The notes: a model not told the origin generated them from the letters alone. DNA of 64,000 nt from Alphaproteobacteria bacterium (GCA_017539265.1 JAFYHG010000018.1:8779-72778), one strand, 5' to 3'; shown: positions 34,741 through 53,617, counted from the first letter of the stretch. A program made the numbers and translations.

Positions 34741-35661
34741 TTAACCGTTCATTTGTTTGGCAACTTCTGCGGCGAAATCTTCTTCTTTCTTTTCGATTCC
34801 TTCGCCCAAACCAAAGCGCACAAAAGCCGTCAATTTCACATCTGTTCCGACGGATTTTGCCAAATCGGCCACCACATCTTTAACCTTCTTGTCCGGATCC
34901 ATGATAAAGGCCTGTTCCAACAGGACCACTTCTTCATAGAATTTCCGCATCCGGCCTTCCACCATTTTTTCAATGATGGCCGCAGGTTTTCCGGAATTTT
35001 TAGCCTGTTCGCTATAGATTCCTTTTTCATGTTCAATCGTTGCCGCATCAACATCTGCCACCGCCAAAAAGCGCGGATTGGCCGCCGCAATATGCATGGC
35101 AATTTTCTTACCGGTTTCTTGTAACGCTGCTTGATCGCCCGTGCTTTCCAAAGCCACTAAAACACCAATCTTACCCATTCCCGATACCGTTGCCGTATGA
35201 ACATAGGGAACAACAACCCCTTGGTTCACCGACACATAACCGCTCCGACGCAGGTTCATGTTTTCACCGATTGTTGCAATCAAAGACGTTAAAGTATCCG
35301 AAACCGTTTTGCCGTTTAAATCGGCTGATTTAACGGCATCAACATCGCCTTTTTTCGCCAATGCAACCGTCATCACATCGCCCAAGAATTTTTGAAAGTC
35401 TGTATTTTTAGCCACAAAGTCTGTTTCGCTGTTGAGTTCCACCACAGCCCCTTCCAGACCTTTCACAATCACGCCGACAAGCCCTTGATTCGCTACCCGA
35501 CCGGCTTTCTTTTCGGCAACTGACATACCTTTTTTGCGCAAAAAGTCAATGGCGGCATCCAAATCACCATTTGTTTCCGACAGGGCTTTCTTGCACTCCA
35601 TCATACCGGCACCTGTTTTTTCGCGCAGTTCTTTAACTAAACCAGCTTTAATTTCTGACAT
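34741..35661 (-). CDS. tsf: elongation factor Ts
   Basis: [30 protein letters not shown]-like N-terminus, full length. Confidence 0.95.
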
Positions 35662-36208
35662 GTTGTTTTTCTCCTTTTGTTTGTTGTTGATTAATTTTTG
35701 TTTTTTTTCTTGAAATCAGAAGGGCCTGAATTTGTGTCTTACGATCGGCCAACAGTATTTCTGCAACCCGATAAGCCTGATGAGCCTGTTGTAAACAAAT
35801 CGCCCGTTCCAATATCGGATGATAGTTATAGTATTTAAAGGCTATTTTTGTCATTTCCGTTCTGCCATAGTTCCGTTTAGGACTTAAGGCCTTTACACAA
35901 ACCTGCTGTTCGGCCGGTGATAATCCCGCCGCGAACTGGCAATTTGTCTGATAATTCAAATCCTCTATACTGTCAAACCGTTTCCATTGTACTTCCCGCA
36001 ACTGTGGAAGAGGTCCCCGCAGTGTCCGCAAAGTAAAATGTTCCATATCCGGCGGAATATGGGCGACAAAAGTCTGCCCCGAACTCAGGCCAAACACATA
36101 GAATGAGCCACTCAATCCCGTTGAAAACAATTTTCTTTCCGATGCAGACGCCGGTTGCACAAAAGAAAGTGATGTCTTTAAAATTTTTCGGATTTGTTGC
36201 CCTTCCAT
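35648..36208 (-). CDS. hypothetical protein, diverged third paralog of the rpsB-tsf insert family
   Basis: SD ggggga 5 nt before the ATG. Motifs [12 protein letters not shown] and [10 protein letters not shown] match the two upstream ORFs. Overlaps the tsf start by 14 nt. Confidence 0.5.
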
Positions 36209-36223
36209 TATGTCCCCCTACAA

Positions 36224-36763
36224 TCACTCATATTGTTTCAGGTCATATGTTTGCCGCCGCATTGCCATAAAATCTTGCAGATTTTGTTCTGCCTGCACTT
36301 TTGCCTGCGACATTTTCAAGAAATTAGCCCAATGATGCACCAATTCCATGGTTGTTTTCAAAAGCGGCACACAATGATAATCCGGGAAAGGCACCCACCG
36401 TTTTTCCTTAATGGGATATGGTGTCAAAACTTGCTGATAGGCTTCTCTCGCTTGCGCCGAGCAAGTCGCCTGAAAAGAAATTTCCGTCTTCAAAGCCGCC
36501 GGATATCCGCAAAATCCCCGTGCATTTCTGTTTTTCCAGTGTATTTTTGTAACATCCGGAACTTGATTGTATTCGGCAATCGGTATAAACAGGTATCCCG
36601 ATTTTGAAATAATCCCCCGGTAAGCCTGTTGCTTCTCCAAGTAAAAATCTACTGTCAGTTGAGTCGTATCCCATTGGCGATTTTCCATCGAAACCACCGG
36701 GCTTTCCAATATCTGTTTAATGTTCGAATCCAACAGATACTCATTTTTTGATTTTCTAGCCAT
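36224..36763 (-). CDS. hypothetical protein, paralog 2 of the rpsB-tsf insert family
   Basis: SD gagg. 8-nt overlap (ATGGCTAG) with the upstream ORF. Colinear similarity to 36756..37277, ending TYDLKQYE. Confidence 0.55.
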   Translation of the reverse strand: MARKSKNEYLLDSNIKQILESPVVSMENRQWDTTQLTVDFYLEKQQAYRGIISKSGYLFIPIAEYNQVPDVTKIHWKNRNARGFCGYPAALKTEISFQATCSAQAREAYQQVLTPYPIKEKRWVPFPDYHCVPLLKTTMELVHHWANFLKMSQAKVQAEQNLQDFMAMRRQTYDLKQYE

Positions 36764-37277
36764 ATTGCCTCAGATCATAAGTTGCTTGTTTCAATGCTAA
36801 AATATCGGTCAAATTTTGATTCGCCTTCTTGGCAATCAGATCCATTTGAACTTTTTTCTCATAGGCATGTCGAACCTTAAATGCCGTCTGAAGCATCGGC
36901 ACATACCGATAAATCGGATACGGCCGCCAATCTTTTTCTTCAACTTCACGCGGTGTTAAGATTCTTTCATAAGCTTCTTTATCTACCTCTGATACCTTTT
37001 TGCTCAACACAACTTCGGTATCAAAACCGCTGCCGCGACCGCCGAAACCCATTCTATATGATTTCCACAGGATTTTCTGGAGTTCCGGCAATTGATTCTG
37101 CTCTGCATCAGCAGAAAACTGATATCCTTTTTCATTCCACAAAACACGGAATTTTTGTTTGCTTGACAGATAAAAATCCGCTTCCCACCATAAACCAATA
37201 TGGGGATCAACCGTTGACTGAAAATTTTCAATTTTGACAACTTCAGCGTTTAGTATTTTCTCGGCATTAGGCGTCAT
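36756..37277 (-). CDS. hypothetical protein, paralog 1 of the rpsB-tsf insert family
   Basis: ATG 37277 has SD aaagga 9 nt upstream. The alternative ATG at 37295 has no SD. Ends TYDLRQYG. Confidence 0.55.
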   Translation of the reverse strand: MTPNAEKILNAEVVKIENFQSTVDPHIGLWWEADFYLSSKQKFRVLWNEKGYQFSADAEQNQLPELQKILWKSYRMGFGGRGSGFDTEVVLSKKVSEVDKEAYERILTPREVEEKDWRPYPIYRYVPMLQTAFKVRHAYEKKVQMDLIAKKANQNLTDILALKQATYDLRQYG

Positions 37278-37300
37278 TTGAAGGTATCCTTTCATTCAAA

Positions 37301-37337: not shown

Positions 37338-38105
37338 TTATTCTGCCTTTGCTTCCGCAGGGGCTTCTGCCGGCACTTCTGCTGCCGCACCGACATCAAC
37401 GCCGGCCGCTTTTAATTCGGCTTGAATACCGTCTAAAACAGCACCGGAAACCAAATCGCAATAGAGGTTAATTGCTCTCAAGGCATCATCATTCCCCGGT
37501 ACCGGATAGGCAATCCCGTCCGGATTCGCATTAGAATCGCAAATCGCAACCACGGGGATCCCTAATTTTTGGGCTTCCGCAATGGCCAATTGTTCCTTGG
37601 GCACATCGATTACAAAGATAATGTCCGGACGACCGTTCATATCTTGAATACCACCTAATGAGGCAAACAATTTTTCGCGTTCGCGTTCCATGTTCAATTT
37701 TTCTTTTTTGGTAAAACCGTTCAATTCGCCTTTGGCGATTTTAGAATCGATTTCTTTTAAGCGTTTAATACTGGAAGAAATGGTTTTCCAGTTCGTGAGC
37801 ATACCACCCAACCAACGGTGATTCACAAAGAATTGGCCGCAACGTTTTGCTGCTTGTTCAATCGGTTCTTGGGCTTGTTCTTTAGTTCCCACAAACAAAA
37901 CCTTGCCACCTTTGGCCGCGACATCGCGGATGGCTTCCAAGGCCCGATACAACATCGGAACTGATTGTGTTAAATCCATGATATGCACGCCTTCACGTGT
38001 TCCATAGATATATTGCCCCATTTTCGGGTTCCAGCGGCGCGCATTGTGCCCGAAATGGACACCCGCTTCAATAAGTTGACGCATAGATATAGTCGGAAGA
38101 GTCAT
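37338..38105 (-). CDS. rpsB: 30S ribosomal protein S2
   Basis: [13 protein letters not shown] start region, full length, Ala/Glu-rich tail. Confidence 0.95.
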
Positions 38106-38257
38106 TTTAATATCCTTTCTTTTTCCGGTTAAACCTCAGTGGGGCAGAGCATCAATGAACCTTCATCGACACCGGAAGCGTTGTTTTCTCGGGAACTCCC
38201 CGAAATAAGCGCTTTCCCCACATGTGAATTTTGCCGTTTTTGTAAACGACGGTTGCT

Positions 38258-38286: not shown

Positions 38287-38346
38287 GCATTATTTACACC
38301 TAACTCCAACCTTTTTCCATACGTAAAGTTTTCTGTTTTAGGCGCT

Positions 38347-38371
38347 AAAAAAGCCCCGTCAAAAGGGGCTT
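38347..38371 (-). terminator. orphaned native terminator of tRNA-Arg
   Basis: On the minus strand, directly after the distal att copy: aagcccc-ttttgac-ggggctt followed by ttttt. Confidence 0.5.
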
Positions 38372-38381
38372 TATTACAAAC

Positions 38382-38398
38382 TGGCGCGCCCGGCAGGA
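38382..38398. repeat. att copy 1 (17-bp duplicate of the tRNA-Arg 3' end)
   Basis: tggcgcgcccggcagga is identical to 43255-43271 and 59090-59106. Confidence 0.85.
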
Positions 38399-38603
38399 GC
38401 TTGGGGGGAAAGCAAAATAACCCACTGGATCAGTTGAAAAATTTTCAGGCAATATTTGAGGGTTTTCAGAAAGTGTCCAGGGGATGACAAGGGGTGATAG
38501 ATGAACAAATTTCTTGATGTATTTCAAGGGTAATTTCATATAAGGATAAAACTGTATTTTTGACACCTGTCTTATAAAAACAAGTTGGGCAAAAGGGCAT
38601 TTG

Positions 38604-38672
38604 TCAAAGATACATCAAAAGACGTCTTGTGGTAATGGCTTGCACCTCTTTATAAAACCTTTTCCAATACAT
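38604..38672 (-). pseudogene. 3' remnant of a homolog of ORF 43477..43938
   Basis: Translates ...KRFYKEVQAITTRRLLMYL-stop, compared with ...DRLYEEGQSIITRRLLKYL-stop. Truncated upstream. Confidence 0.5.
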
Positions 38673-38714: not shown

Positions 38715-39563
38715 TTAGTCAGCATCATAGGTCCATTGACCATTTCTTAATTCAAATTTATCTAGATTAAATTTGACAGTACAATTTCCTTCAGGATCAC
38801 AACCGCCTGATATATTATTAAGATTCTTGATTTTTATATCTGTTATTATCGGAAAACGGTAGTAAAATACTTTTATTTTAAATGTAACCAGACCGGTCTC
38901 ATCTCCTAACATATTCTCAATGTAATCTAACGCCTTATCTTTTGGAAGATTTAGTTTGAAAATATCATATCTTTTTGCTTTATCCAATTTGATGTTAATG
39001 GCAACCGAGGAAGCATAATTTAGTATTGTATCTGCTAGATAATTCGCCCATAATCTATTATACTGATTTTCAAATAGCGTTTTAATCTCTTTTAAATCCT
39101 GATTCTCTTTTTTAAACTGGTACAAAGAAAGCAAAGTGTTCAGATTTTTTATCAATGGTTCTCCTTTACTAAAAATTTTAACTAATTCTTCCGTACTTTC
39201 AAAAGGATAATCTTTCTTTTCTAGAGAAAAACGGTGCAAGGCTGATTCAATGGCGGCATAATAGAGAACATGGTTCAATACCGTATTTACACAAGATTGA
39301 TACCTTTTCCCCTTTGTGAGGCATTGCTCTACTCTTGTTTTGATCTTTGCAGAGTCATAAGCTTTATCTATTGCCACAAGAGTTTCTTCTACCGTATCAG
39401 CATTCATTGTACCATCAATAATTTCTTGGGTGAGTTCCAATAATTTTGTTCTAAAATTAGAAATGGATTCTATTTGTTGACTTGTCATATCAAGGGCGTA
39501 ACTTTTACTTGTCATCAATACAAAAGTAATGACCAGAGCTAAGGATATTTTTATTTTAGACAT
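38715..39563 (-). CDS. hypothetical secreted protein
   Basis: Signal peptide MSKIKISLALVITFVLMTSKSYA. Last gene of a 4-gene same-strand block. Confidence 0.5.
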   Translation of the reverse strand: MSKIKISLALVITFVLMTSKSYALDMTSQQIESISNFRTKLLELTQEIIDGTMNADTVEETLVAIDKAYDSAKIKTRVEQCLTKGKRYQSCVNTVLNHVLYYAAIESALHRFSLEKKDYPFESTEELVKIFSKGEPLIKNLNTLLSLYQFKKENQDLKEIKTLFENQYNRLWANYLADTILNYASSVAINIKLDKAKRYDIFKLNLPKDKALDYIENMLGDETGLVTFKIKVFYYRFPIITDIKIKNLNNISGGCDPEGNCTVKFNLDKFELRNGQWTYDAD

Positions 39564-39566
39564 ATT

Positions 39567-41249
39567 CTAATCCTTTCCGATACAATAAGATTCTGTACCA
39601 TATTCATGTCTTTCTCTTCTTATTTTACGATTTTGGCACATATTACATTGTTCTTCTGCTCCTGTTACATTAAGCCTTGCCAGTCCAATACCATAGTCTC
39701 CTTTGGAATCACAAGAATAACAGTGTGCAAAACCATAGCTTACTTCTAAAATGGGTTTTTCTTCCGGACACGGAATCATACAATATCTTCCGATTAATTT
39801 TCGATTTGGACAAAGCTTACAGTTATTCGTTACACCCTCAAGATCTACTAAATTACTTCCATCATTGCATGCAAAACATTCACCATTTTTATCTCTTAAA
39901 GGTTTATCAGGGGGGCATGACTTTAGGATGCTGTATTTTTCAACAATTTCTCTTTCCGTTTCACAAGCATTAGAGATATTTCCATTTACTTCAATTTTTA
40001 CAGGGGCTGAACAAGCATAGCAGTTACCATCGATATCTACTTGGGGTTTATCTGTTGGACATAATACACAACTGTTCCCCGTATCTAAAACAATTCTATT
40101 AGGACAGATCTGACACACCTCTGCAGCAGCAACACGAATACGAGCAATTTCATCACATGAATGACATTCTCCAACTTCATCCCTAAGGGGTTTATCCTTT
40201 GGACATGTTAAGATACAAATATCGCTATATTTTGTGTGGACAGAATACCTGTTGGGGCACACAGAACAATTTGGTGAGTCAATAGATCTGTTTGCTTCAT
40301 TTTCATCACAAGGATGGCAACGTCCTTCCTTATCGGCCAAAGGTTTGTCCTGTGGACACGGGAGAGAACAGAGATTTCCATACATAATACGGTTTGAACA
40401 TAATTGGCATGTTTGCTCATCGGTTTTTAATTTTTCATCGGTTTCACAATCATAGCATCCTGCGTTTACTCTCATTGGCTTATCAGATGGGCAAGTTTCC
40501 AAAATACATCCATTTTTGTAATCGTATATTCTCTCAGGATATAAAGCACATTGTTGTTTTTGAAAATCTATATTTTCTCTCGCTACATAGGCCCTCAAAG
40601 ATTCTTCTTCGTTTTTAGGTTCCATAAACGTAATAGGTAAAGGATCATCAGTGGCACGACAACCACCATTGCTATCGCGAATTGGGAAGTCTTTTGGACA
40701 TTCCCCCTTTAAAAAACAAATATTCCCGTTTAGTTCACGGTTTGCACATTGTAAACAATTACTTCGTTCATAACTTTGACGGAAGCCTAAATCCAATGCA
40801 GCAGGATCATCACATGAAAAACATTTAAATTCTCTTGTTCGTTCATCAACAATCACTTTAATTGGCTTTTCTTCAGGACAACCGAATGTGCAGGTACCTG
40901 TGGCTCCATCGTTATCTTCAAAAAATTGTGTTCCGGGAATTTGGGCACATTCCCAGTCCGTAAGACCATAAGCATCTTCTCTGGAACAAGCATTATAACC
41001 ACTACCTCTTAAAGGATTGTCTGGTGGACATTCTTTCAGAATACAGTGACCATACTCATCCAATTTTCTATTTGAGCATATGCTTGAGCACTCTTGATTG
41101 TAAACCCCGCGTAGTGTATCACAGGAAAAACATTCCCTATTGTACTCCGCTAATGGTTTATCTGGTGGACAAACAATAGGTTCTTTTTCAGCCATTGCAA
41201 AAGAAGGCATCATTATTGATATAAGTAAAAATAAGGTTGTTTTTTTCAT
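39567..41249 (-). CDS. secreted cysteine-rich repeat protein (10x CPxDKP units)
   Basis: Signal peptide MKKTTLFLLISIMMPSFAMA. Ten units of 45-60 aa of the form CP.[DE]KP[LIM]...C..C[DE]...C..C.NR...C. Confidence 0.6.
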   Translation of the reverse strand: MKKTTLFLLISIMMPSFAMAEKEPIVCPPDKPLAEYNRECFSCDTLRGVYNQECSSICSNRKLDEYGHCILKECPPDNPLRGSGYNACSREDAYGLTDWECAQIPGTQFFEDNDGATGTCTFGCPEEKPIKVIVDERTREFKCFSCDDPAALDLGFRQSYERSNCLQCANRELNGNICFLKGECPKDFPIRDSNGGCRATDDPLPITFMEPKNEEESLRAYVARENIDFQKQQCALYPERIYDYKNGCILETCPSDKPMRVNAGCYDCETDEKLKTDEQTCQLCSNRIMYGNLCSLPCPQDKPLADKEGRCHPCDENEANRSIDSPNCSVCPNRYSVHTKYSDICILTCPKDKPLRDEVGECHSCDEIARIRVAAAEVCQICPNRIVLDTGNSCVLCPTDKPQVDIDGNCYACSAPVKIEVNGNISNACETEREIVEKYSILKSCPPDKPLRDKNGECFACNDGSNLVDLEGVTNNCKLCPNRKLIGRYCMIPCPEEKPILEVSYGFAHCYSCDSKGDYGIGLARLNVTGAEEQCNMCQNRKIRRERHEYGTESYCIGKD

Positions 41250-42022
41250 TGTATAAATCCCCTGATTAACTTATCATCCCATCCTTTGTCAGGACCTGTA
41301 AAAAATCCAAACCCAGAATTAAATTGAAAAAGCTTAACTTCATCCTCAGACATATCTCTTGATTTACCAGAAAGAGCATAAACTTTTCCAGAAACTTTTT
41401 CTCCATCTTGTATTATTTCAAAAGCCTTTCCACCAGTTCTATAAAAGAGTGTTGCTGTGGCTATTTTCTTTTCTTTGTCTACTGATCCAAGATATTTTAA
41501 ATTTCCATTTTTATAATATACCTTAAATTCTCCGGCCTCATCATTTTCTGGATATTCAGCGAATTTTTCACCGCTGGCATAACGCTGTTCTTCTACGTAC
41601 TCCTTTCCATTTTTATAAGTAATACTCCATCTTTGTTCACCATTAATATGGTAATGTATTTCTTTTCCTTCTTTTTCTCCGTTTAAGTATGTTCTTAACA
41701 TTCTTGGAGTCCCATCCGGACGATATTCTTCCAAGGTACCATTGTACTTTCCATCTTTCCAATGAACAATAAAGCGTTTCGTTCCATTGGGCCAATACCA
41801 AATTTCTGTTCCGTTTTTTAGACCATTTTCATAAGGTATTTCTTTTTGAATATTCCCATTTTTAAAGGGAACTTTTACCATCCCTGTAATACTTTGATTG
41901 TTCTGATCTACTACCATATTTAAAGCTGGATCTAAACGGATATCTTTTTCCTGATAAATCGTTTCGGCATTTACAGAAGCCGAAAAGATTAAACACAATG
42001 ATAAAATAAATTTATATTTCAT
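41246..42022 (-). CDS. secreted MORN-variant (YwqK-like) repeat protein
   Basis: Signal peptide MKYKFILSLCLIFSASVNA. Repeats such as YENGLKNGTEIWYWPNGTKRFIVHWKDGKYNGTLEEYRPDG. Confidence 0.65.
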   Translation of the reverse strand: MKYKFILSLCLIFSASVNAETIYQEKDIRLDPALNMVVDQNNQSITGMVKVPFKNGNIQKEIPYENGLKNGTEIWYWPNGTKRFIVHWKDGKYNGTLEEYRPDGTPRMLRTYLNGEKEGKEIHYHINGEQRWSITYKNGKEYVEEQRYASGEKFAEYPENDEAGEFKVYYKNGNLKYLGSVDKEKKIATATLFYRTGGKAFEIIQDGEKVSGKVYALSGKSRDMSEDEVKLFQFNSGFGFFTGPDKGWDDKLIRGFIQ

Positions 42023-42023
42023 A

Positions 42024-42911
42024 TTATCGAGCCCCCAAACTGATACTAAGTGCTATATCCATCAAATAATCTGTTGCTTTTTGTTCGTCTAAAATGCTTT
42101 TTTCCCCGTTCTCAGAATAAAATTCTCCAGCAATGGCCTTATCTCCTTTGATAGTCAACCGCAACATGGGTTTATTATTTTCATAGTAGACCGTATAGAT
42201 ATAATTTGCTTGTTCTTTGAATTCTTCAGGTACTGGTTCTATATAAAGATATATTCTATTATTACTCGCATAGTAAGTTTTGGTATTTGTTGTCTGATCT
42301 TCTGAGAACGAAAGATTCCCTTTATAATCATACTGTTCCCTTATAGAATTATTTTCATAGCAAGATTCTACTTTTCGTGCTGGCAATTCAGTAATTGGTA
42401 ATCCGGTTACTTTTGAAATGCGTTTCTGTGTCGGGTCAATTTTCGACCTGTATCCGGAATAAGGCCTTCCATCTCTATAATACGTACTTTTAACGCATCT
42501 GTTCATTTTGTACTCTGTTTTTTGGGAAATTTCGCCGGGATGATATTTGTCATATTCAATTACCATACCATTTAGATATCCATCCTTAAAATCATACTCT
42601 TTTTCAAGAATATCTTCTCTATCATAACACTTCATCTTCCCGTCTTTTTTACCGTTTTTTACGGAAAGTTCCATCTTATGGCAAACTGACCACGAATTTG
42701 TCCCGGGTAAAGCAAACACCCTTGTCGAAACACTTTTTAACTGATCTGACTCATTATACAATATTGTTCCTGTGATCGGGTTATAGTTCTTATCATAGAT
42801 AATATCACTTTCCCGAACATCAAGAATATCTGTTAAAGAGTAAACTGCTTGCCCAAAAGATACGGAGGGGCATAAAGCAATGAATAATCCCAATATGGCT
42901 ATTTTTTTCAT
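42024..42911 (-). CDS. secreted MORN-variant-like repeat protein
   Basis: ATG 42911 with SD ggggga. Signal peptide MKKIAILGLFIALCPSVSFG. KNGKKDGKMKCYD...FKDGYLNGMVIEYD repeats. Confidence 0.55.
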   Translation of the reverse strand: MKKIAILGLFIALCPSVSFGQAVYSLTDILDVRESDIIYDKNYNPITGTILYNESDQLKSVSTRVFALPGTNSWSVCHKMELSVKNGKKDGKMKCYDREDILEKEYDFKDGYLNGMVIEYDKYHPGEISQKTEYKMNRCVKSTYYRDGRPYSGYRSKIDPTQKRISKVTGLPITELPARKVESCYENNSIREQYDYKGNLSFSEDQTTNTKTYYASNNRIYLYIEPVPEEFKEQANYIYTVYYENNKPMLRLTIKGDKAIAGEFYSENGEKSILDEQKATDYLMDIALSISLGAR

Positions 42912-43254
42912 AACATCCCCCATAATAAAACACTTTTTGTATTGTAAACAATTTTTTTCTAAATGCAAGTGTAAAAAAACGAACATTTTTATTGTCTGCT
43001 GAACTAAATATATTACGAACGTTTTTTAATATTGTTATATAAAATGATCAAAAAGATCTACAAACCGGATATCAAAAAATGCACTAAAAGTTCACCATAA
43101 AGTTCCATAAAAATTGTCCTAAAATCAATTTAAAAATGAGGATAAGAAAAGTGTTTGTTTGTGTCCAAGGATTGTGTCCACCCCTTGTTGCCAAGCAAAA
43201 TTCCCAATTTCAGGCATAAAAAAAGCCTTGATAAACAAGGCATTATTTTAAAAG

Positions 43255-43271
43255 TGGCGCGCCCGGCAGGA
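43255..43271. repeat. att copy 2
   Basis: tggcgcgcccggcagga. Confidence 0.85.
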
Positions 43272-43476
43272 GCTTGGTGGAAAAGTGAAATAACCCACTG
43301 GATCAATTAAAAAATTTTTGGGCGATTTTTGAGGGTTTTCAGAAAGTGCCCAGGGGATGACAAGGGGTGATGAATGGACAAACTTCTTGATGTATTTCAG
43401 GGGTAATTTTACATAAGGATAAAAGTATATTTTGGATATCTGTCATAGGAGCACAGGTTGGGCAAAAAGGCATTTA

Positions 43477-43938
43477 TCAAAGATATTTCAAAAGACGCCT
43501 TGTAATTATGGATTGCCCCTCTTCATAAAGTCTGTCAAGGTACAAGCGTTTCGTAACTCCGTCATTTAAGTCCGAAATATTCCTTATTAGATTATGGACA
43601 CAGTCTATGGAGGGTTTTCTGTGTTCACAAAGGAGCATTCCAAAATAGTACTTGTTCTTGTTCAGGAACTGTTCACTGAACTGGTACTGGCTGTCTATAT
43701 ATCCTAATTTGCGGAGGTACTTATAGCATTTAGTTATAAATTGAGCATCTTCTGTTTGGTCAGAGTAAGGGGGATTGGAGAGTTCATCTGCAACCTCTTC
43801 ATCGACATTTTTGGTGTTTTTAGGTGCGGGTGGCACAAGTTCCTCCGGTGTATTCAGATGCTTTCTGATTTTCCTCATATTTTCGGCAATATCTTCAAAA
43901 CTTACAATCATGAATAATTTCCTTTTAGTAATAGACAT
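43477..43938 (-). CDS. hypothetical protein conserved at the element's tRNA-distal end
   Basis: ORF of 153 aa. A remnant of a homolog lies at the same relative position in the neighbouring element. Confidence 0.5.
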   Translation of the reverse strand: MSITKRKLFMIVSFEDIAENMRKIRKHLNTPEELVPPAPKNTKNVDEEVADELSNPPYSDQTEDAQFITKCYKYLRKLGYIDSQYQFSEQFLNKNKYYFGMLLCEHRKPSIDCVHNLIRNISDLNDGVTKRLYLDRLYEEGQSIITRRLLKYL

Positions 43939-43988
43939 CTGTATTTATAAAGAAAATGATTAAAAAATGGAATTTTTTAAAAAAGATC

Positions 43989-44017
43989 TTGGCTTTTAAA
44001 ATGATCGGCTATATAGT
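43989..44017 (+). promoter_or_regulatory. candidate promoter (island promoter cassette, copy A)
   Basis: TTGGCT-17 nt-TATAGT followed by cccgggcc. Paralogous to 47186-47214. Confidence 0.5.
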
Positions 44018-44060
44018 CCCGGGCCCCGGGCAAGACTGGGGTAACTGAAAGGATAAAAAT

Positions 44061-44432
44061 ATGCTGGAACAACAAATGATACAAAGCGATAACCTGAATA
44101 CCATTATGGCAAATTGCTATGGCACAGAGAATTATTACACAAACAACTATTTGAAATACAATTACACAGACGGAATTAAAACTTTCTGTGAACAGGCATC
44201 CGCTTATTGGTTATTGAGCCTTATCCAAGGGGTTTATACAAAATATCCTCAAATGCGGAAAGATTTAATTGCTATAACACTAATGGTAAATGATGACAAT
44301 ACTGCCATTATTACCTTTACCGATGAAAAAGGTCAATTTTATAAGCAGCGTATTCCTTATACGGATTGTCCGGTAGGAGAATGGAAATTTTATTTTGAAA
44401 ACAATGTATTTTTCTGGAATGGAGAATATTAA
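44061..44432 (+). CDS. hypothetical protein (resembles the DUF6876 plasmid/ICE family, from memory)
   Basis: CYGTENYY...YTDGIKTFCEQASAYWLLSLI motif block. Confidence 0.4.
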   Translation: MLEQQMIQSDNLNTIMANCYGTENYYTNNYLKYNYTDGIKTFCEQASAYWLLSLIQGVYTKYPQMRKDLIAITLMVNDDNTAIITFTDEKGQFYKQRIPYTDCPVGEWKFYFENNVFFWNGEY

Positions 44433-44433
44433 T

Positions 44434-44865
44434 ATGAATAAAGAACAAATTAAAGAAGCAATATTAGGGAAAAAAGATTGTCATGGGGAAGAAACACCTC
44501 TCTGTCAATTTTCAACATTCCATCCGGATATGGAAATGGTGGAGATATTATTAAAAGGTGCGGATATTAATAAATCTTTTAATCACCAACCGATGGCATG
44601 GGTATTTCAATTCTGTGAACCGAATTGGGATGAAATGCTCACGCTTTTGTTCAAATACAAATACCATGCCTTACATCTGGACAGGAAAAGCGATTTTGAA
44701 AGTTTACTGCAACTTTTATCCAGAGTTAAACCGGAAACCGTGATGTATGTCTTAAAAATAATGAAGAAACATAGGTTTCGACCGACATTTGAACAGATTG
44801 ATTACATAAATAAATCAAAAGAGGATTTTAAAAAGGAGTTTAAATGGAAAGACTGGGTGAAATGA
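44434..44865 (+). CDS. hypothetical protein, one degenerate ankyrin-like repeat
   Basis: The ATG at 44434 follows the upstream stop. EMVEILLKGADIN segment. Confidence 0.4.
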   Translation: MNKEQIKEAILGKKDCHGEETPLCQFSTFHPDMEMVEILLKGADINKSFNHQPMAWVFQFCEPNWDEMLTLLFKYKYHALHLDRKSDFESLLQLLSRVKPETVMYVLKIMKKHRFRPTFEQIDYINKSKEDFKKEFKWKDWVK

Positions 44866-45317
44866 CAAAAGGTTTGTTAAAAGCAATCAATGAAAGGAAT
44901 TGGCGAGAAATTAAAAGGCTGGTTCACTTGGGCGGAAACTTAAATGCCGCTTACGATCCGTTTGGAAATACACCCTTTTTATATGCCATGCATATTTTTA
45001 AGAAAGCGGAAGAAATTGAACGCTTGATTAAATTAGGTGGAGATGTGACCTATAAAAACAGGGTGGGAAAAACAGCCTTGATGATAGCAGTTGAAAATGG
45101 GTGTGAACCGATAACGCCTTGGGTTATGGTGGATTATGGAGCGGACATTAATGCACAGGATGCATTGGGAAACACCGCCTTAATGATTTGTTTAGAATCC
45201 AGATTATATACCAAGAAACTGCTTTATGCCCTGATAGATTACGGGGCAGATTTAACCAACCTGAAGAATAAGGAAGGGAAAACAGCGTTTGATATACTAT
45301 ATGATGAATTAGAGTAA
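44844..45317 (+). CDS. ankyrin repeat protein
   Basis: SD aaggag 5 nt before the ATG. Repeats GNTPFLYAM...LIKLGGDV, GKTALMIAVENG, GNTALMICL...LIDYGADL. Confidence 0.75.
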   Translation: MERLGEMTKGLLKAINERNWREIKRLVHLGGNLNAAYDPFGNTPFLYAMHIFKKAEEIERLIKLGGDVTYKNRVGKTALMIAVENGCEPITPWVMVDYGADINAQDALGNTALMICLESRLYTKKLLYALIDYGADLTNLKNKEGKTAFDILYDELE

Positions 45318-45336
45318 TCACTTTTGCGGAGAAGTG

Positions 45337-47076
45337 TTAACTAATCCGCAAATCTTTAATAGTTAATTCTTTGGTATTATTATCTTGGGGAAAATCTTTC
45401 CTGTCTTTTTCCCCAAAACCATATTCTTTTCGGCAATTTTCTAATTTGTTCCAGTCTTGCACACGATATGCATAAAGAGCAGATCGGGGATACATAATAC
45501 GCTTTCTTTGTCCAACAAAGGGGATTGATGTCTTGGTTCGTTTCTTTTTATCCGCCATCCTCTTTTTTGCTAACCAACTGATACTTTTTTCCAGATAACT
45601 TGCAGCAACTTTAGGTGACATCCATCCTGCATGAAGTGCATAACGGAGATGTGGTGATCCACTTGGTTTCCCTTTTCCTTCCAATCCCAAAGATGATATA
45701 ACGGATTGATAATTATGACTTAAAAGCATTTCCTTAAATACTTCTTTTTCTCGTTCTCTTTGGGGAGTGTTTTCATTAGTATACGCAATATTAGCGATTG
45801 TTGATTTATCACTTAAAGTGCATTCCTCAAAATCAAATCTCTTTAAGAAAGAAATATTCTCCAGAACAAGGTTACATCCCTCAAAAGAAGTCTGACTAAA
45901 GGAAACATCTCCCCCGAAAAGAGTGTTCCTTATAATAAAGTGCCGACTTCTTGGCGTTGCGTTAAACTTCAATTCTGAATTATTTAATAAAAAGGCACTA
46001 GATCTATTAAAAATACAGTTATGGATATAAAAACTTGTGTGAAATAAACTATTTCTAAAATCAAACTTACCATTTACAGTGCACTGCTCAAATGTTATAG
46101 CGTGCTTAATTTCCCTTGCGGGTGCAAAATCTTTCTCAAAGAAGCAATGATTAAAAGTGACTCTTGCTCTTATCGCATCATGGGGACAGACATAGTTAGC
46201 GGAAAATAGACAATCTTTGAAGAAAACACCTTCCATTGGATTAAATGCCCCATGAAAGCATATCAAATTCCAAAAGAATTCCTGCTCTTTTCTACCAAAT
46301 TCTACATTTTCTATTATAATAATAGAGCGACAATATTCGGAAGGAACTATTTTATATTGATGAGGTTTCTTGATTGTCTTGGTTGCCTGCGGGTGTTGTA
46401 GAAATACAATCTTATCTATTTCCTTTTTAATTTCAGGAGATTTGGTTTGTTCCGCCAGCATATAAAAAGGAGTACGGATTTCTTTCAAAAAGTCTGGATA
46501 CAAAACGGTTGGCAAGTGTTTTGTCAGTTGAACGGGTGAATTTCCAAACTTTTTGAACAGGTAAAGCAGTTCTCTTAAAAAATATCTGCCATTATTACCG
46601 ACTTTAGTTCTTATTCGTGCTAATGCTCCGACCATTCCTTTGGCATCTGCTAGGTCTTCAATATCTTGTGTTGTAATTTTGCCTCTTTTGTAATCATCTG
46701 TATCAATTTCAAAACAGGCAGAAAAGATATCTTGGAAGGTACGGATACATAACCTTAATGTTTGGTCAACACCTATTGGGTAATAATCGGGATGCGTAAA
46801 TGCATCAGGATATCCCTTCTCTGGTTGTTTTGTTTTAATGTATGTTTGTAAAATGTTTGGATAGACATCCGTCCAAAAATCTAAATTCAAAGATTTGAAC
46901 CGACCTTCTGGTCCATAGACCAGTTCTTCTTGGTAATCTTCATCTAAAAAAAAGTTTGGGCGTTCCAGTTTCATAAAAAACTCATATAAGTTGAAAAAGT
47001 TGGGGGGATTATACCACAAAATCTCCCAAAAGTCCAGAAGAACAAGAAATGTTAAAAAATCCATCTTTTTTAACAT
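45337..47076 (-). CDS. hypothetical protein: unknown N-domain + beta-helix/pentapeptide-like repeats + C-terminal excisionase-type HTH
   Basis: Periodic F.[NDQE][CST].F units across residues about 300-440. C-terminal MSPKVAASYLEKSISWLAKKR...IPFVGQRKRIMYPRSALYAY. The start is uncertain. Confidence 0.5.
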   Translation of the reverse strand: MLKKMDFLTFLVLLDFWEILWYNPPNFFNLYEFFMKLERPNFFLDEDYQEELVYGPEGRFKSLNLDFWTDVYPNILQTYIKTKQPEKGYPDAFTHPDYYPIGVDQTLRLCIRTFQDIFSACFEIDTDDYKRGKITTQDIEDLADAKGMVGALARIRTKVGNNGRYFLRELLYLFKKFGNSPVQLTKHLPTVLYPDFLKEIRTPFYMLAEQTKSPEIKKEIDKIVFLQHPQATKTIKKPHQYKIVPSEYCRSIIIIENVEFGRKEQEFFWNLICFHGAFNPMEGVFFKDCLFSANYVCPHDAIRARVTFNHCFFEKDFAPAREIKHAITFEQCTVNGKFDFRNSLFHTSFYIHNCIFNRSSAFLLNNSELKFNATPRSRHFIIRNTLFGGDVSFSQTSFEGCNLVLENISFLKRFDFEECTLSDKSTIANIAYTNENTPQREREKEVFKEMLLSHNYQSVISSLGLEGKGKPSGSPHLRYALHAGWMSPKVAASYLEKSISWLAKKRMADKKKRTKTSIPFVGQRKRIMYPRSALYAYRVQDWNKLENCRKEYGFGEKDRKDFPQDNNTKELTIKDLRIS

Positions 47077-47185
47077 TGCTTTTAAAGGATTTGAAAAATA
47101 AGGCTATTTTATTTTAACCTATATGCCCCAAATTATGAAATGTTTAATTTTAAAGAAAAAACTTATATTTTTTAACATTTAGGGC

Positions 47186-47214
47186 TTGGCTTTTCAAAAA
47201 ATCGGCTGTATGCT
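47186..47214 (+). promoter_or_regulatory. candidate promoter (island promoter cassette, copy B)
   Basis: TTGGCT-17 nt-TATGCT followed by cccgggcc. Confidence 0.5.
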
Positions 47215-47257
47215 CCCGGGCCGCAATAAAAGTTCAATTTTAACGAAAGGATACAAA

Positions 47258-47839
47258 ATGGTTAATCAAGTTTTTATTGACGACAAGAAAATTAAAGACA
47301 TCTTAACTTACATTCAGGGGATGAGACATGCTGAAATGATACGGATGATGTTTTTATGTTCACTGAATGGCATGAGGTCTATAAATTTCGCCTATCTCCA
47401 AGTAGGTGATGTTTATACTCCCGACTTTAAGGTTAAGGATGTCATTTGTTTGGATGCGGATAAAAATAAAGGAAAGTTCGGGTGTTCGTATTATCTTAAC
47501 AGCCAAATGAAGAAAGAGTTTAAGGAGTATTTAGGGTATTTGAAGGCTAAAAATGAAGAGATTACGCCAGAAATGTATTTGTTTACCTCACAAAAGATGG
47601 GAAAACCTTTCAACCGTGTGTCAATTTCACGGATGTTCGCAACCGTTTACAAAAAGTTCAACATTGAAGGAGCATCACACTTGGGGCGACATTTGTTCGT
47701 GAGTCGGCTTATCAATGCTGGAACTAATATCTGTTTGGTTCAGAAACTCGCCAACCATCGCAACATTGGCACAACCCAACGTTATTTTAATTATAACGAG
47801 AAAATGCTCTCAAATGCTGTGGAAAATGTAGTTTTATAG
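47258..47839 (+). CDS. small tyrosine recombinase, FimB/FimE-like size (catalytic domain only)
   Basis: SD aaagga. 193 aa. HLGRHLFVSRL and LANHRNIGTTQRYF catalytic motifs. Confidence 0.75.
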   Translation: MVNQVFIDDKKIKDILTYIQGMRHAEMIRMMFLCSLNGMRSINFAYLQVGDVYTPDFKVKDVICLDADKNKGKFGCSYYLNSQMKKEFKEYLGYLKAKNEEITPEMYLFTSQKMGKPFNRVSISRMFATVYKKFNIEGASHLGRHLFVSRLINAGTNICLVQKLANHRNIGTTQRYFNYNEKMLSNAVENVVL

Positions 47840-47850
47840 CTGTGTGGTAG

Positions 47851-48113
47851 CCTAAAAGTGTATATAATTTTAAGTTATATCTCTTTTTCTTCTTCTTGAA
47901 TTAGAACATGTTCTAATCCACAGAGTATTTTATAGATTCCGAGGAATCTTGTTTGAACTAGTAATTTTTTTAGTTCTTTAAATTTAGCATGTATTTGTAT
48001 CAAAATTATTTTTTCTTTAAAAATTTGATTGGAATTTTTCATAGTAATATCCTTTCTTAAAAAAATAAGGGAACATTAAAGTCCCCATCTATTTCAACTC
48101 ATACACTTTTAGG
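47851..48113. repeat. 13-bp perfect inverted repeats flanking a 237-bp segment (candidate invertible element or MITE)
   Basis: cctaaaagtgtat at 47851-47863 and atacacttttagg at 48101-48113. Internal 18-bp palindrome attagaacatgttctaat at 47900-47917. Confidence 0.55.
47875..48042 (-). CDS. possible 55-aa ORF inside the IR-flanked segment
   Basis: aaaggatattactATG SD/start. MKNSNQIFKEKIILIQIHAKF... No homology judged. Confidence 0.3.
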   Translation of the reverse strand: MKNSNQIFKEKIILIQIHAKFKELKKLLVQTRFLGIYKILCGLEHVLIQEEEKEI

Positions 48114-48161
48114 TATTACATGTTATTTAATGATTGCGCCAAGTGTTTGATGCATTTGTTT

Positions 48162-49130
48162 TTATGGTGTTTTTTGTAATTTCTTAAATTGGTAAAATAC
48201 AGATGCCGGCGAAACACCGAAATAGTCGCCAATTTGTCTAAAACTCATTCCAGCTGTTTTCATTCGTACCAATTGTTTGCTATCCACTTTAAAGTCTTCC
48301 CAGCCTTTATTTTTAACTAAATCAAATTTTTTTATAACCCTGTAGATACTCGCTGGATGGGCATTTACCTTTTTTGCAATTTCTTTTCCCGAAACACCAG
48401 AAAAATACAATTTTTTTATAAGTTCTTCCTGCTTTCCCAACCGACTATTCAATTTAATTTGATCAGGTGTCCGGGTTAATCCCATTTTTTTAATTTCTTG
48501 TTCAAGAAGTTTATGAGAGCATCCTAATTTTTCTGCTATAAAGGAAATGGATCTTCCTTCAGCAAACATCTCTTTTATCTTATCCTTTTTAAGGTCTAAT
48601 TTCTTCAGTTTAGGTGCTTCTAAATTATGTAAAAGAATGAAATTATACAATGTTGAATAGCAAACATTATATTTTTGTGCAATGGCTTTTCTAGAGACAC
48701 CTTTTAATAATAGGTCTTGTATATCATCTTTATAGTGGTCTATTCTGGTCCAGTTATGGCGAGGTTCTGGTTTTAACCCCAATAATCTTTGTTCTTCTAA
48801 TGTTTTTTTGCCTTTTTTATAGACCTGTATACGATCAAGTGATGCGACATAAATACCGCTTTCTTTTTCAAATTTTATGAGTGTTCTGCGGCATATTTTC
48901 AATTTTTTACAGATATCTTCACGCGTTAGCCCTAATTTATAAAAATGTTTTATTTTTTCGGGATTAAGTTTTATTTCCCGAGTATGTGGTTCTCTTTTCC
49001 ACCCTAAATCTTTTAGATAATTACGAAGGGTAGAAAGACTTATATTCATACGATCCGCTATCCCGCCCAAGGAAAGGTCAGATTTGTAGAGTTCTTTTAA
49101 TTTGTCTATATCTAGTTCAATTTTGTTCAT
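48162..49130 (-). CDS. DNA-binding protein with six tandem helix-turn-helix modules
   Basis: Six units of the form [IL]K.[LM]Y..G.S...IA.K.......[LI]...[IL]KK..L, e.g. GVSGKEIAKKVNAHPASIYRVIKKF. Confidence 0.6.
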   Translation of the reverse strand: MNKIELDIDKLKELYKSDLSLGGIADRMNISLSTLRNYLKDLGWKREPHTREIKLNPEKIKHFYKLGLTREDICKKLKICRRTLIKFEKESGIYVASLDRIQVYKKGKKTLEEQRLLGLKPEPRHNWTRIDHYKDDIQDLLLKGVSRKAIAQKYNVCYSTLYNFILLHNLEAPKLKKLDLKKDKIKEMFAEGRSISFIAEKLGCSHKLLEQEIKKMGLTRTPDQIKLNSRLGKQEELIKKLYFSGVSGKEIAKKVNAHPASIYRVIKKFDLVKNKGWEDFKVDSKQLVRMKTAGMSFRQIGDYFGVSPASVFYQFKKLQKTP

Positions 49131-49146
49131 TTATGGGCGGATTTTC

Positions 49147-49174
49147 AAAAAAAGCGGAGTATTTCTACTCCGCT
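49147..49174 (-). terminator. Rho-independent terminator after the island adhesin
   Basis: On the minus strand, agcggagta-gaaa-tactccgct forms a 9-bp stem followed by ttttttt. Confidence 0.65.
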
Positions 49175-49234
49175 CACTTAAATTAACTAATAGGAAGGGA
49201 GACCGAGAAATCAGTCTCCCCGGAGTTCTTCGCA

Positions 49235-52726: not shown

Positions 52727-53005
52727 TAACTATACCTTTCTTTTTAATATTAAAATTAAAGTTACGAGGAGTTCTCTTTTTCAAAACCCTCGTCCGTCAT
52801 CTTACACAAATGTTCCTTTATGAAATGATTTGAAGAAAAGTGATAAAAATAGCATACTTTTGTCTTATATATTATTGTATTTTCAATATGTTATATTCAA
52901 TTTTAATTTTTTTAAAAAAAATGTTAAAAAATGTTTGCAATTTAAGGAACTATTTTTTGCATATGAAATTATCGGCAATAAATAACTTTAACAAAAGGAT
53001 ACAAA

Positions 53006-53617
53006 ATGGCAACTATCGCATATATCAGGGTTAGCAGCGATAAACAAACCTGTTCTAACCAACACTTTACGATTAAAGAATACACAAAATCTCACAATAT
53101 CCACATTGATAAATGGGTTGAAGAGACTATTTCCAGCAAGAAACCTTTGGAAAAGCGGGAATTAGGCGTATTATTAAATAAAATGGATAAAGGCAGTTTA
53201 TTAATTGTAACGGAAATCAGCCGTCTTGCCCGTAATCTATACGAATTGGCGGGCATATTGCAAAATGCTATTAAGAACGACATTACTGTTATTAGTATCA
53301 AGGAAAACTATCAGTTCAAAAATGATATCCAGTCCAAAATTATGGCATATACTTTTGGGCTTGCCGCAGAAATTGAGCGTGATTTGATCTCAACCCGCAC
53401 TAAAATGTCATTGGATAAATTAAAAAAGCAAAATGTTAAATTAGGCAGACCATTCGGGGCGGAGACAAAATGTTTAAAACTATCCAAAAACCGCAAGAAA
53501 ATAAGGGAATTATTAGGAAAAGGTGTCAGTCAGGCCAAAATATCCAAAATCCTTGGCGTCCACCCGACAACCATGTGCCGGTTCTTGAAACGAGTGGATG
53601 TGTCAACCTGTTCCTGA
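53006..53617 (+). CDS. serine recombinase (resolvase/invertase family)
   Basis: AYIRVSSDKQ catalytic serine region, SRLARN motif, C-terminal HTH GVSQAKISKILGVHPTTMCRFLKR. Confidence 0.85.
   Translation: MATIAYIRVSSDKQTCSNQHFTIKEYTKSHNIHIDKWVEETISSKKPLEKRELGVLLNKMDKGSLLIVTEISRLARNLYELAGILQNAIKNDITVISIKENYQFKNDIQSKIMAYTFGLAAEIERDLISTRTKMSLDKLKKQNVKLGRPFGAETKCLKLSKNRKKIRELLGKGVSQAKISKILGVHPTTMCRFLKRVDVSTCS

Follow-up and report, generated by a model that had tools for sequence, protein, structure and literature searches.

The locus analysed here raises the question of how four genes for apparently exported proteins came to be bounded as a unit that lacks an integrase, and what their products might do. 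The genes lie in a 64,000-nt stretch of DNA (the window), whose host genome is that of an uncultured gut alphaproteobacterium. Four minus-strand ORFs run from 42911 to 38715: g1 (42911..42024, 295 aa), g2 (42022..41246, 258 aa, a predicted exported MORN_2 repeat protein), g3 (41249..39567, 560 aa, predicted to be exported, with ten Cys-rich repeats), and g4 (39563..38715, 282 aa, predicted to be exported or N-terminally anchored). The ORF coordinates give a gap of 1 nt, a 4-nt overlap, and a gap of 3 nt, exactly as the preliminary description had stated. The g1 start is the 26th codon of a longer ORF (42986..42024); it is the same Met in all orthologues and is preceded by a GGGGGA ribosome-binding site, and purine-rich sites lie upstream of the starts of g2, g3, and g4 as well. 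Alignment of upstream regions showed that a stretch of ~60 nt 5′ of g1 (42912..42973, minus strand) moves with the operon, similarity to the copy in another metagenome (L014) reaching 42973, and this stretch is probably the promoter and 5′ UTR. Searches of Pfam and NCBIfam with g1–g4 found no enzyme, regulator, or transporter domain, which bears out an earlier claim, and no match to recombinase, relaxase, or type IV secretion families. The GC content of the operon (0.349, or 35%) agrees with that of low-GC relatives having a chromosomal g1-g2-g3 (0.31–0.34), not with that of the 45% GC host (0.447).

All four proteins had been said to carry N-terminal signal peptides. We scored leaders by a crude heuristic rule (n-region charge, h-region, and small-x-small site), and by this scoring each of the four has the features of a Sec (signal peptidase I) leader: two K/R among the first six residues, a 10-residue hydrophobic core with a mean Kyte–Doolittle value of 2.5–3.1, and a small-x-small site (VSFG↓Q, VNA↓E, AMA↓E, and SYA↓L, respectively), with no second membrane-spanning-like segment beyond the leader. 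The same crude rule flags 10 of the 63 ORFs in the window, and g1–g4 form the only consecutive run; the chance expectation for such a run of four is ~0.006, so the run is non-random. The leaders are kept in the alignments of g1, g2, and g3 orthologues. The signal-peptide claim is thus upheld at the level of a heuristic. A lipoprotein reading of g1 was rejected, as its ‘IALC’ has Leu at −1 and four of six orthologues have Tyr where g1 has the Cys, and no candidate for the lipobox L-[ASTVI]-[GAS]-C is found in g2, g3, or g4.

The operon lies within a strain-variable insertion at a tRNA gene. On one side, rpsB (37338..38105, minus strand, Ribosomal_S2) and its Rfam leader (38108..38226, minus strand, RF01815, 46.9 bits) represent the native chromosome, 99.4% identical to an empty-site contig (L020). 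On the other side is tRNA-Arg(ACG) (59090..59166, minus strand). An exact-match search found three copies of the 17-nt 3′ end of this tRNA, at 38382, 43255, and 59090: att copy 1 (38382..38398, TGGCGCGCCCGGCAGGA), att copy 2 (43255..43271), and att copy 3, which is the 3′ end of the real tRNA (59090–59106). In three contigs from three other samples of sister strains (L018, L019, and L020), 93–99% identical to this locus, tRNA-Arg is joined directly to the rpsB leader; the identity of L020 is 99.2% for one flank and 99.4% for the other. It follows that the 20.75 kb from 38300 to 59052 form an insertion that varies between strains and lies at the 3′ end of tRNA-Arg(ACG); two related site-specific elements, arranged in tandem, make it up.

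The two elements are delimited by common arms. The R1 arm of the small unit (38399..38656) is 84.5% identical over 258 nt to R2 (43272–43529), and its F2 arm (43158..43254), which carries a terminator-like hairpin (43225–43241), is 88.8% identical to F3 over 97 nt; beyond these shared arms similarity falls to ~46%. This sets out a unit of 4,856 nt holding only the operon and one of 15,818 nt holding an integrase, with att copy 2 at their junction. Within the small unit, g1–g4 are the only non-nested ORFs of at least 60 aa, and its sole cargo is the four-gene operon of proteins with Sec-type leaders. R1 retains ~18 codons from the 3′ end of an otherwise deleted DUF6626 gene, a terminal gene of the island (C-terminal remnant ..RFYKEVQAITTRRLLMYL before the stop, versus ..RLYEEGQSIITRRLLKYL before the stop), so the small unit is a deletion derivative. 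F1, the 83-nt flank (38299..38381) that separates att copy 1 from the native sequence upstream of rpsB, is only 56–58% identical to F2, F3, and the empty-site flank, and its terminator-like hairpin is unlike that of the empty site; the history at this end must therefore have been more complex than simple integration.

The adjoining island, element 2 (43272..59089), is proximal to the tRNA and syntenic with an island in L014. It encodes a tyrosine integrase of 590 aa (57007..58779, plus strand; DUF6538 and Phage_integrase, 2.9e-12; phrog_1, 1.3e-28), which adjoins the F3 arm 310 nt from the tRNA and 14 kb from the small unit. Element 2 also contains a short integrase-domain ORF (47186..47839), a trimeric autotransporter with a YadA anchor (49235..52726), a resolvase (53006..53617), DUF6626 and DUF6876 genes, two ankyrin genes, a gene for a multi-HTH protein, and a weak DnaD-like ORF. 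Its integrase is presumed to be the recombinase for all three att copies. Domain and phage-family searches revealed no recognisable conjugation, transfer, or packaging genes in either unit, and with no recognisable conjugation module the partner element is at best an IME-like island. The description of the element as integrase-less holds for the 4.86-kb unit delimited by att copies 1 and 2 (38382 and 43255). The operon had further been called a self-contained cargo on a mobilisable unit; the operon and its att-flanked unit stand, but self-sufficiency does not, because the small unit relies on the integrase encoded by the 15.8-kb island next to it.

With both att arms and an island-gene stump, and without recombinase, replication, or transfer genes, the small element fits a decayed cis-mobilizable element (CIME), a class whose definition and accretion model come from PMC5704250. 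Its attL/attR-type borders are homologous to those of the integrase-bearing element, genes for integration, excision, or transfer are lacking within it, and its derivation by deletion is seen in the DUF6626 stump and in the complete L014 island, where the operon is internal. The CIMEs related to ICESt1/ICESt3 of Streptococcus thermophilus, which belong to the CIMEs in tandem accretion with ICEs/IMEs (PMC5704250), likewise have attL/attR-type sites akin to those of an adjacent element that bears an integrase, lack integration and transfer genes, bear in one arm a gene stump that marks the deletion, and have the incoming element on the side that retains the intact target gene. They differ from the present case in host and target, here an uncultured gut alphaproteobacterium and tRNA-Arg, in that this element is known from sequence alone, and in the mismatch of the rpsB-side flank F1 with the empty site. 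Insertion at a tRNA 3′ end with empty sites in relatives also places the whole with tRNA-integrated tyrosine-integrase islands of the pathogenicity or symbiosis type, whose integrase beside the att site is found here in element 2 only. Both have the tRNA 3′ end as a direct repeat, an integrase beside the tRNA, deviant GC, empty sites in sister strains, and cargo of a surface or host-interaction type (here the YadA-type autotransporter and ankyrin proteins), whereas this insertion is small and composite and its internal third att copy isolates one operon. The mobile-element layout is of a well-known, ordinary kind, and it is the cargo that is uncharacterised. We consider the architecture of tandem att-bounded units, the small one CIME-like, to be very probably correct.

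Whether the small unit can still move is a separate matter. Divergence between the two units has brought the identity of their arms down to 84–89%, F1 is aberrant, and none of the loci retrieved was a contig bearing one unit and not the other. Scans for att junctions in JGI metagenomes and IMG/VR gave a single chance match and no excision product, circle, or attP junction. These results would suit a middle att copy that is an inert accretion scar, with the operon fixed in a single 20.7-kb island or immobile, in which case the term integrase-less element would describe only its past. However, no difference has arisen among the three 17-nt cores, the integrase ORF has its full length, and strains of 99% identity include both occupied and empty sites, which points to gain or loss in recent times; moreover, documented CIMEs have been mobilised in exactly such a configuration (PMC5704250). 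An inert scar seems doubtful to us. If the middle copy is instead functional, as we prefer, the neighbouring integrase would recombine any pair of the three att copies, and the operon could then exit alone or in the company of the large island, and be carried along by whatever transfers the latter.

The distribution of the genes was compared with the expectation that the four-gene block is co-conserved. Synteny of the triad g1-g2-g3 extends to at least six other lineages (L003/L004/L013, L005, L008, L009, L012, and L014), and g4 accompanies the triad in only two of them, so that co-conservation stands for the core but fails for g4 (three of eight lineages). In L009 the block is flanked by an outer-membrane-protein gene and a YadA-type adhesin gene. 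In L014 a diverged copy of all four genes is carried as cargo inside a complete island related to element 2, and the integrase, resolvase, and DUF6626 proteins of that island are 72%, 79%, and 72% identical to those of element 2.

Two of the proteins had been described as MORN-variant or YwqK-like. For g2 this is confirmed by Pfam MORN_2 (PF07661; 40.6 bits, 1.4e-10, against a curated gathering cut-off of 29.6), and seven g2 orthologues were aligned. No direct Pfam match was obtained for g1, which enters through the homology of its family to that of g2 (hhalign 98.7%, E 3e-16). We assign g1 and g2 as MORN_2-type paralogues, g1 being the divergent one. MORN_2 is chiefly a bacterial domain (PMC4222103), which runs counter to the suggestion that MORN and Cys-rich repeats are eukaryote-like modules. 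The expansions of MORN2 (PF07661) proteins in Fusobacterium offer a precedent: 87% of these proteins have signal peptides, their genes lie in clusters with those for RadD/YadA adhesins, and they have been proposed to act in adhesion (PMC4222103). The resemblance lies in exported MORN_2 repeat proteins near YadA/RadD-type adhesin genes and mobile DNA, but Fusobacterium has dozens of them where this alphaproteobacterium has two paralogues, and strict synteny with a Cys-rich repeat protein is an arrangement not described for Fusobacterium.

The Cys-rich repeat protein of 560 aa was recovered as claimed: g3 contains 54 Cys in ten repeats of 45–69 residues with the pattern C-P-x-D/E-K-P ... C-x2-C ... 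C-x2-C-x-N-R ... C. The Cys residues are nearly all invariant in orthologues, and in all of these the degenerate repeats 2 and 4 lack the third and fifth Cys together. The predicted structure is confident (pLDDT 83.3) and has short hairpins and one short helix per repeat. No Pfam match was found, nor any significant match to solved structures when sequence and fold were compared with the PDB. Tandem small Cys modules with CxxC spacing recall eukaryotic disulfide-rich repeats (the furin-like repeats of R-spondin, the Cys-rich domains of TNFR, and the LDL-receptor/EGF modules of megalin), but similarity to furin-like, EGF, or TNFR repeats is not significant in sequence or fold, and these identities were rejected; the Cys repeat has no significant eukaryotic match that would rescue the eukaryote-like reading. 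With ~415 related clusters, g3 belongs to what appears from sequence comparison to be an undescribed Cys-rich repeat family, and this protein is the new part of the locus. Prepilin-like N-termini were recognised by eye in six relatives (P0006, P0007, P0008, P0014, P0018, and P0019), of which only P0019 matches Pfam N_methyl, under its cut-off (E 0.0092). A type IV pilin identity for g3 itself was rejected, as its own leader is ordinary and the prepilin motif G↓x-[ST]-[LM]-[VI]-E is confined to relatives.

These features suggest a working model. The four proteins would cross the inner membrane by Sec, and g3, forming many disulfides, would take the shape of a long rod of repeats. That g1 and g2 may act together with g3 is suggested by the strict synteny of their genes and by a relative (P0027) in which Cys repeats and MORN_2 repeats are naturally fused. 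Jointly, the proteins could constitute a cell-envelope or surface module of the adhesion type for the animal gut. The gene neighbours of the block in L009 and the Fusobacterium precedent are hints in this direction. A surface or adhesion role, like the host-interaction or surface-matrix module first suggested, is plausible, though we hold it only tentatively; blended with the architecture into one judgement, the whole is moderately probable.

The location of the proteins leaves room for a periplasmic module, in which g3 would bind metal in a zinc-ribbon-like manner or act as a buffer against redox or envelope stress, and g1 and g2 would be its partners in the periplasm. Domain searches and inspection of leaders found no beta-barrel, lipobox, autotransporter, or other sorting signal, so that outer-membrane targeting features are absent from all four proteins; with no evident outer-membrane route, they may remain in the periplasm. 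The two CxxC pairs in each canonical g3 repeat are typical of zinc knuckles too, and one relative (P0028) is fused to the periplasmic domain LprI/DUF1311. Against this, many g3 relatives bear a prepilin-type leader, a VIT domain, or a C-terminal membrane segment, which suggests display outside the cell; the joint loss of the third and fifth Cys would fit independent disulfide pairs better than a four-Cys metal site; and the only fold-search neighbours of g3, all weak, are disulfide-bonded extracellular modules. We judge a periplasmic module to be rather unlikely.

Polymorphic toxin cassettes often sit on mobile islands, and g1 and g2 could be YwqK-type immunity proteins against a periplasm-acting toxin, with g3 or g4 as toxin or carrier. 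One fused g3 relative (P0179) bears the source annotation ‘toxin-antitoxin system YwqK family antitoxin’, and in one lineage (L014) g3 diverges faster (37%, versus 62% for g1 and 71% for g4). However, the YwqK name, which NCBI gives to many MORN_2 proteins, derives from similarity in the common MORN_2 repeat, and g1 and g2 differ from that family in bearing export leaders and having no adjacent toxin gene. Membership was rejected for want of an adjacent cognate toxin, no toxin-type domain lying nearby: g3, g4, and their neighbours contain no toxin, LXG, Rhs, CDI, T6SS, or nuclease domain. In L003, L005, and L012 the triad sits amid housekeeping genes without a delivery system, and g3 is a pure repeat protein with invariant Cys. 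A toxin–immunity cassette is thus highly improbable.

The surface module that we prefer can be taken further. In its most specific form, gut alphaproteobacteria would possess in g1-g2-g3 an exported system that has so far gone unrecognised, a disulfide-stapled rod assembled or presented by two dedicated MORN_2 partners that attaches to host or protist cells and spreads between strains as a minimal att-flanked cassette via its neighbour's integrase. This full version is speculative and, taken as a whole, fairly unlikely; if true, the g3-type rod would be a new fold family that also forms the distal part of pilin-like proteins.

The fourth protein is an accessory, putatively helical one restricted to few lineages. 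Its claimed size of 282 aa is correct; its claimed helicity is seen only in a low-confidence model (pLDDT 48.9), too poor to be of use, in which the N-terminal two thirds are helical and a small C-terminal part is beta. No PHROGs match was obtained, and g4 has three homologues among 5.8 billion proteins. In one orthologue (P0034) the N-terminus is more like an uncleaved anchor.

The four genes form a compact operon on the minus strand, with g1 at 42911..42024 (295 aa), g2 at 42022..41246 (258 aa), g3 at 41249..39567 (560 aa) and g4 at 39563..38715 (282 aa), and the ORF table confirmed the spacings given in the preliminary description, i.e. 1 nt, a 4-nt overlap and 3 nt along g1–g2–g3–g4. The mechanical ORF of g1 begins at 42986; we set the start at Met 42911, which is the start in all g1 orthologues and has a GGGGGA ribosome-binding site ahead of it, and a purine-rich ribosome-binding site stands in front of all four genes. 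Each product also carries the signal-peptide-like leader that had been described, consisting of two K/R at the start, a 10-residue hydrophobic core (mean Kyte–Doolittle 2.5–3.1) and a small-x-small site, as judged by a crude heuristic rule and not a trained signal-peptide predictor. A second membrane-spanning-like segment was seen in none of the four. As the rule was positive in 10 of the 63 ORFs of the window and g1–g4 were the only consecutive positives, the run of four leaders is not a chance pattern. All four proteins would be exported by Sec.

The operon lies between two copies of the 17-nt 3′ end of a tRNA-Arg gene, TGGCGCGCCCGGCAGGA. Repeat search and alignments gave three exact copies of this att sequence, at 38382, 43255 and 59090, the last being the 3′ end of a real tRNA-Arg(ACG) (59090..59166). 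Copies 1 and 2 share an arm on their right (R1/R2, 84.5% identical over 258 nt), and copies 2 and 3 share one on their left (F2/F3, 88.8% identical over 97 nt), which contains a terminator-like hairpin; similarity drops to ~46% directly outside both arms. A promoter and terminator scan yielded a site count not above that of shuffled sequence, with the tRNA-type hairpin in F2 as the sole standout. The att copies and shared arms are the signature of two related site-specific elements in tandem: element 1 (38399–43254, 4,856 nt), which holds the four operon genes and nothing else, and the integrase-bearing element 2 (43272–59089, 15,818 nt). Element 2 encodes a 590-aa tyrosine integrase adjoining the tRNA, a resolvase, a short integrase-domain ORF, a weak DnaD-like ORF, two ankyrin genes and a YadA-anchor autotransporter. 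We also considered element 2 as a prophage and rejected this, as PHROGs returned only the integrase, HTH proteins and a weak DnaD-like match, and no structural genes.

A look-up of the exact rpsB protein gave three contigs from other samples with an empty site (L018, L019 and L020), in which a glucokinase-like gene and the tRNA-Arg with its terminator run straight into the promoter and leader of rpsB. Since L020 matches the window at 59707–59053 (99.2%) and at 38299–37197 (99.4%), this strain carries 20,753 nt (38300 to 59052) that near-identical strains lack. The rpsB leader (Rfam RF01815, 38108–38226) and its upstream region are untouched. The host DNA of the window has ~45% GC, and the stretches at 38.2–49 kb and 52.7–59 kb have 31–37%. 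An ordinary chromosomal operon is ruled out by the empty sites, this GC contrast and the att arms.

R1 still codes for the C-terminal ~18 residues of a DUF6626 protein, whose gene is the terminal one in element 2; element 1 is therefore a deletion derivative of a fuller element. This fits the published definition of cis-mobilizable elements (CIMEs) and the three-step accretion model, in which integration is followed by decay and then by entry of a second element at whichever att site retains the tRNA end (PMC5704250). The mobile part is a CIME-like remnant in a tandem accretion at a tRNA gene, a well-described architecture; the unit is not self-contained but a remnant that depends on the helper island next to it. 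The three cores are identical, and any two of them could serve as substrates for the integrase of element 2, with release of element 2, of element 1 or of the composite. Recognisable transfer or packaging genes are present in neither element, so that any spread must depend on other means. No excised form was seen in att-junction scans, which were uninformative. The core with its R-arm, TGGCGCGCCCGGCAGGAGCTTGG, had no match in IMG/VR and a single one in JGI metagenomes, a chance match within coding sequence of 67% GC that has no relation to the window.

The source of the operon is indicated by L014, a 31-kb contig from another metagenome that is syntenic with element 2 (integrase 72%, 168-aa ORF 57%, resolvase 79%, short integrase ORF 91%, ankyrin 52%, DUF6876 58% and DUF6626 72%). 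Here g1–g4 are internal, between integrase-proximal cargo and the resolvase. The GC of the operon (0.349) is like that of genomes with a chromosomal g1–g2–g3 triad (flanks 0.31–0.34) and unlike the window host (0.447). From this synteny and GC match, we conclude that this island family introduced the operon, which persists in the window as the sole content of a decayed island copy. The att copies, the empty sites and L014 lend direct sequence support to the integrase-less mobilisable unit first proposed, and the feature is real and correctly described. With its empty-site controls, it offers a clean natural case of a single operon packaged into a minimal cassette that lacks an integrase and lies next to a helper island; the host group, uncultured ruminant-gut Alphaproteobacteria, is poorly known.

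Several other genes of element 2 deserve mention. The short integrase-domain ORF (47186..47839, plus strand) is the one most similar to its L014 counterpart, the neighbouring island genes being 27–79% identical. Such ORFs span 193–217 aa, and L014 has copies at 13307..13888 and 20013..20441, the second at 61%; the ORF looks like a conserved small recombinase and not a decaying pseudogene. A minus-strand gene at 48162..49130 encodes 322 aa with at least four tandem helix-turn-helix modules and matches to 36 Pfam HTH families. The YadA-anchor trimeric autotransporter (49235..52726, minus strand, 1,163 aa) has internal 167–180-nt repeats and a GC of ~0.43, above the rest of the island. The small ankyrin-repeat genes (44844..45317, plus; 54633..55022, minus) have counterparts in L014, and the ankyrin and adhesin genes suggest that the island family carries host-interaction cargo.

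In all loci compared, g1–g2–g3 occur in one order, tightly packed and with leaders. Identities for g1, g2 and g3 are 35%, 43% and 41% in MAG RGIG7351 from water-buffalo cecum (L003/L004/L013), 32%, 43% and 41% in a metagenome contig (L005), 34%, 43% and 43% in an uncultured alphaproteobacterium MAG (L012) and 61%, 88% and 81% in another metagenome contig (L008), all without g4. The metagenome contigs L009–L011 have 61%, 72% and 66% with g4 at 56%, and L014/L015 have 62%, 53% and 37% with g4 at 71%. As L009 and L014 are the sole loci where g4 follows the triad, the core that is conserved comprises three genes, with g4 as an accessory, and a shared four-gene block holds for its first three members but not for g4. 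A scan of genome contigs with the g3 alignment found only two species representatives, which inform on distribution but are not enough for co-occurrence statistics. For g4, 5.8 billion proteins contained only three homologues, and the model from the three-sequence alignment was unusable (pLDDT 48.9); in it, helix would make up the N-terminal two thirds and beta structure a small C-terminal part.

The product of g3 has ten repeats of 45–69 residues with 54 Cys, following the pattern C-P-x-[DE]-K-P ... C-x2-C ... C-x2-C-x-N-R ... C. Its orthologues are just 41–82% identical, yet nearly all Cys are invariant. Neither the single sequence nor a profile matched Pfam, NCBIfam or PDB sequences, and a profile search of 1.84 billion cluster representatives gave 415 related clusters (counted at 50% identity), 57 of them at E ≤ 1e-30. 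Judged by these searches, the repeat family is real but uncurated and undescribed, and it would deserve a curated family entry. A model from a 24-sequence alignment was confident (mean pLDDT 83.3), with short hairpins and one short helix per repeat. Its top Foldseek match was megalin (E 2.4e-3, probability 0.47), followed by R-spondin furin-like repeats and a TNF-receptor domain at E ≥ 0.5, and there was no significant match among solved (PDB) structures. Repeats 2 and 4 are degenerate and, in every orthologue, lack the third Cys together with the fifth. The invariant Cys and this joint loss favour putative disulfide-stapled modules forming an elongated rod. We also examined Cys co-loss in 1,046 repeat instances with a view to disulfide pairs; nearly all repeats retrieved by the HMM are canonical six-Cys ones, and the fourth Cys is misaligned by the variable loop. 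MAG RGIG7351 also encodes a 246-aa exported short paralogue with the same Cys-rich repeats (L003 11697..12437, minus strand), 2 kb downstream of the triad and on the opposite strand.

Pfam MORN_2 was matched by g2 above the curated cut-off, and g1 had no direct family match. The g1 profile, built from seven orthologues, and that of g2 align across 225 columns (hhalign 98.7%, E 3e-16), hence g1 and g2 are divergent paralogues. In one relative, P0027, the Cys repeats are fused to C-terminal MORN_2 repeats (Pfam 2.6e-9; E 1.7e-5 against the g2 profile), a fusion that independently supports a functional link of g3 with its MORN_2 neighbours. The modules had been called eukaryote-like, which is not supported: MORN_2 occurs mainly in bacteria, and searches with the Cys repeat gave no significant match to a eukaryotic module. 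The cargo is uncharacterised, and its most notable parts are the Cys-rich repeat family, hitherto undescribed, and the constant pairing of that family with two paralogous MORN_2 proteins. For MORN_2 proteins, which still lack a known function, this provides a fixed genetic partner and a natural fusion, and with them a concrete interaction hypothesis. None of these findings overturns current understanding.

As to where the proteins act, a prepilin-type leader precedes the Cys repeats in six g3 relatives (P0006, P0007, P0008, P0014, P0018 and P0019), and the repeats follow a VIT domain in P0039 and precede a C-terminal membrane segment in P0023. In L009, the block is flanked by a gene for an outer-membrane protein on one side and one for a YadA-type adhesin on the other. 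MORN2 proteins of Fusobacterium are mostly exported and grouped with adhesin genes, their function being still unknown (PMC4222103). By analogy, these relatives, the L009 context and the Fusobacterium proteins are pointers to the cell surface. The main rival is a periplasmic role, which is favoured by one g3 relative fused to a periplasmic LprI/DUF1311 domain and by an outer-membrane sorting feature being visible in none of the four proteins. A toxin–immunity reading, prompted by the NCBI label 'YwqK antitoxin' on MORN_2-type proteins, finds neither a toxin domain nor a delivery system in its support. In the prepilin-type relatives (L006 8001..10859; the six proteins named above), a prepilin-like N-terminus (G followed by RSMVEMLGVLAV...) and a ~150-residue pilin-like region come before the Cys repeats. 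These genes stand alone among housekeeping genes, one adjoining rpsB–tsf in its own genome, with no pilus or MORN_2 gene cluster around them. The gene directly downstream of g1–g4 in L009 has an N-terminus related to that of the window autotransporter (63% over 40 residues).

At the rpsB side of the insertion, the 83-nt flank of the first att copy (F1, 38299–38381, hairpin AAAGCCCCTTTTGACGGGGCTTTTTT) is ~56% identical to 125 nt of the empty site (L020 619–742). The hairpin stems differ in sequence and pairing is possible in both; F1 may be a strain polymorphism or a third-element scar. The genes rpsB and tsf are normally adjacent. In the window, three minus-strand ORFs of 179, 179 and 186 aa (35648..37295) lie between them, of which the first two look by eye like mutual paralogues; the ORFs of 179 aa and 186 aa have no Pfam match. 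They also occur in the empty-site contig L018 and are therefore not part of the island. Further low-GC 1-kb bins, at 13001–14000 (0.328) and 20001–21000 (0.343), lie within host DNA of 43–50% GC.
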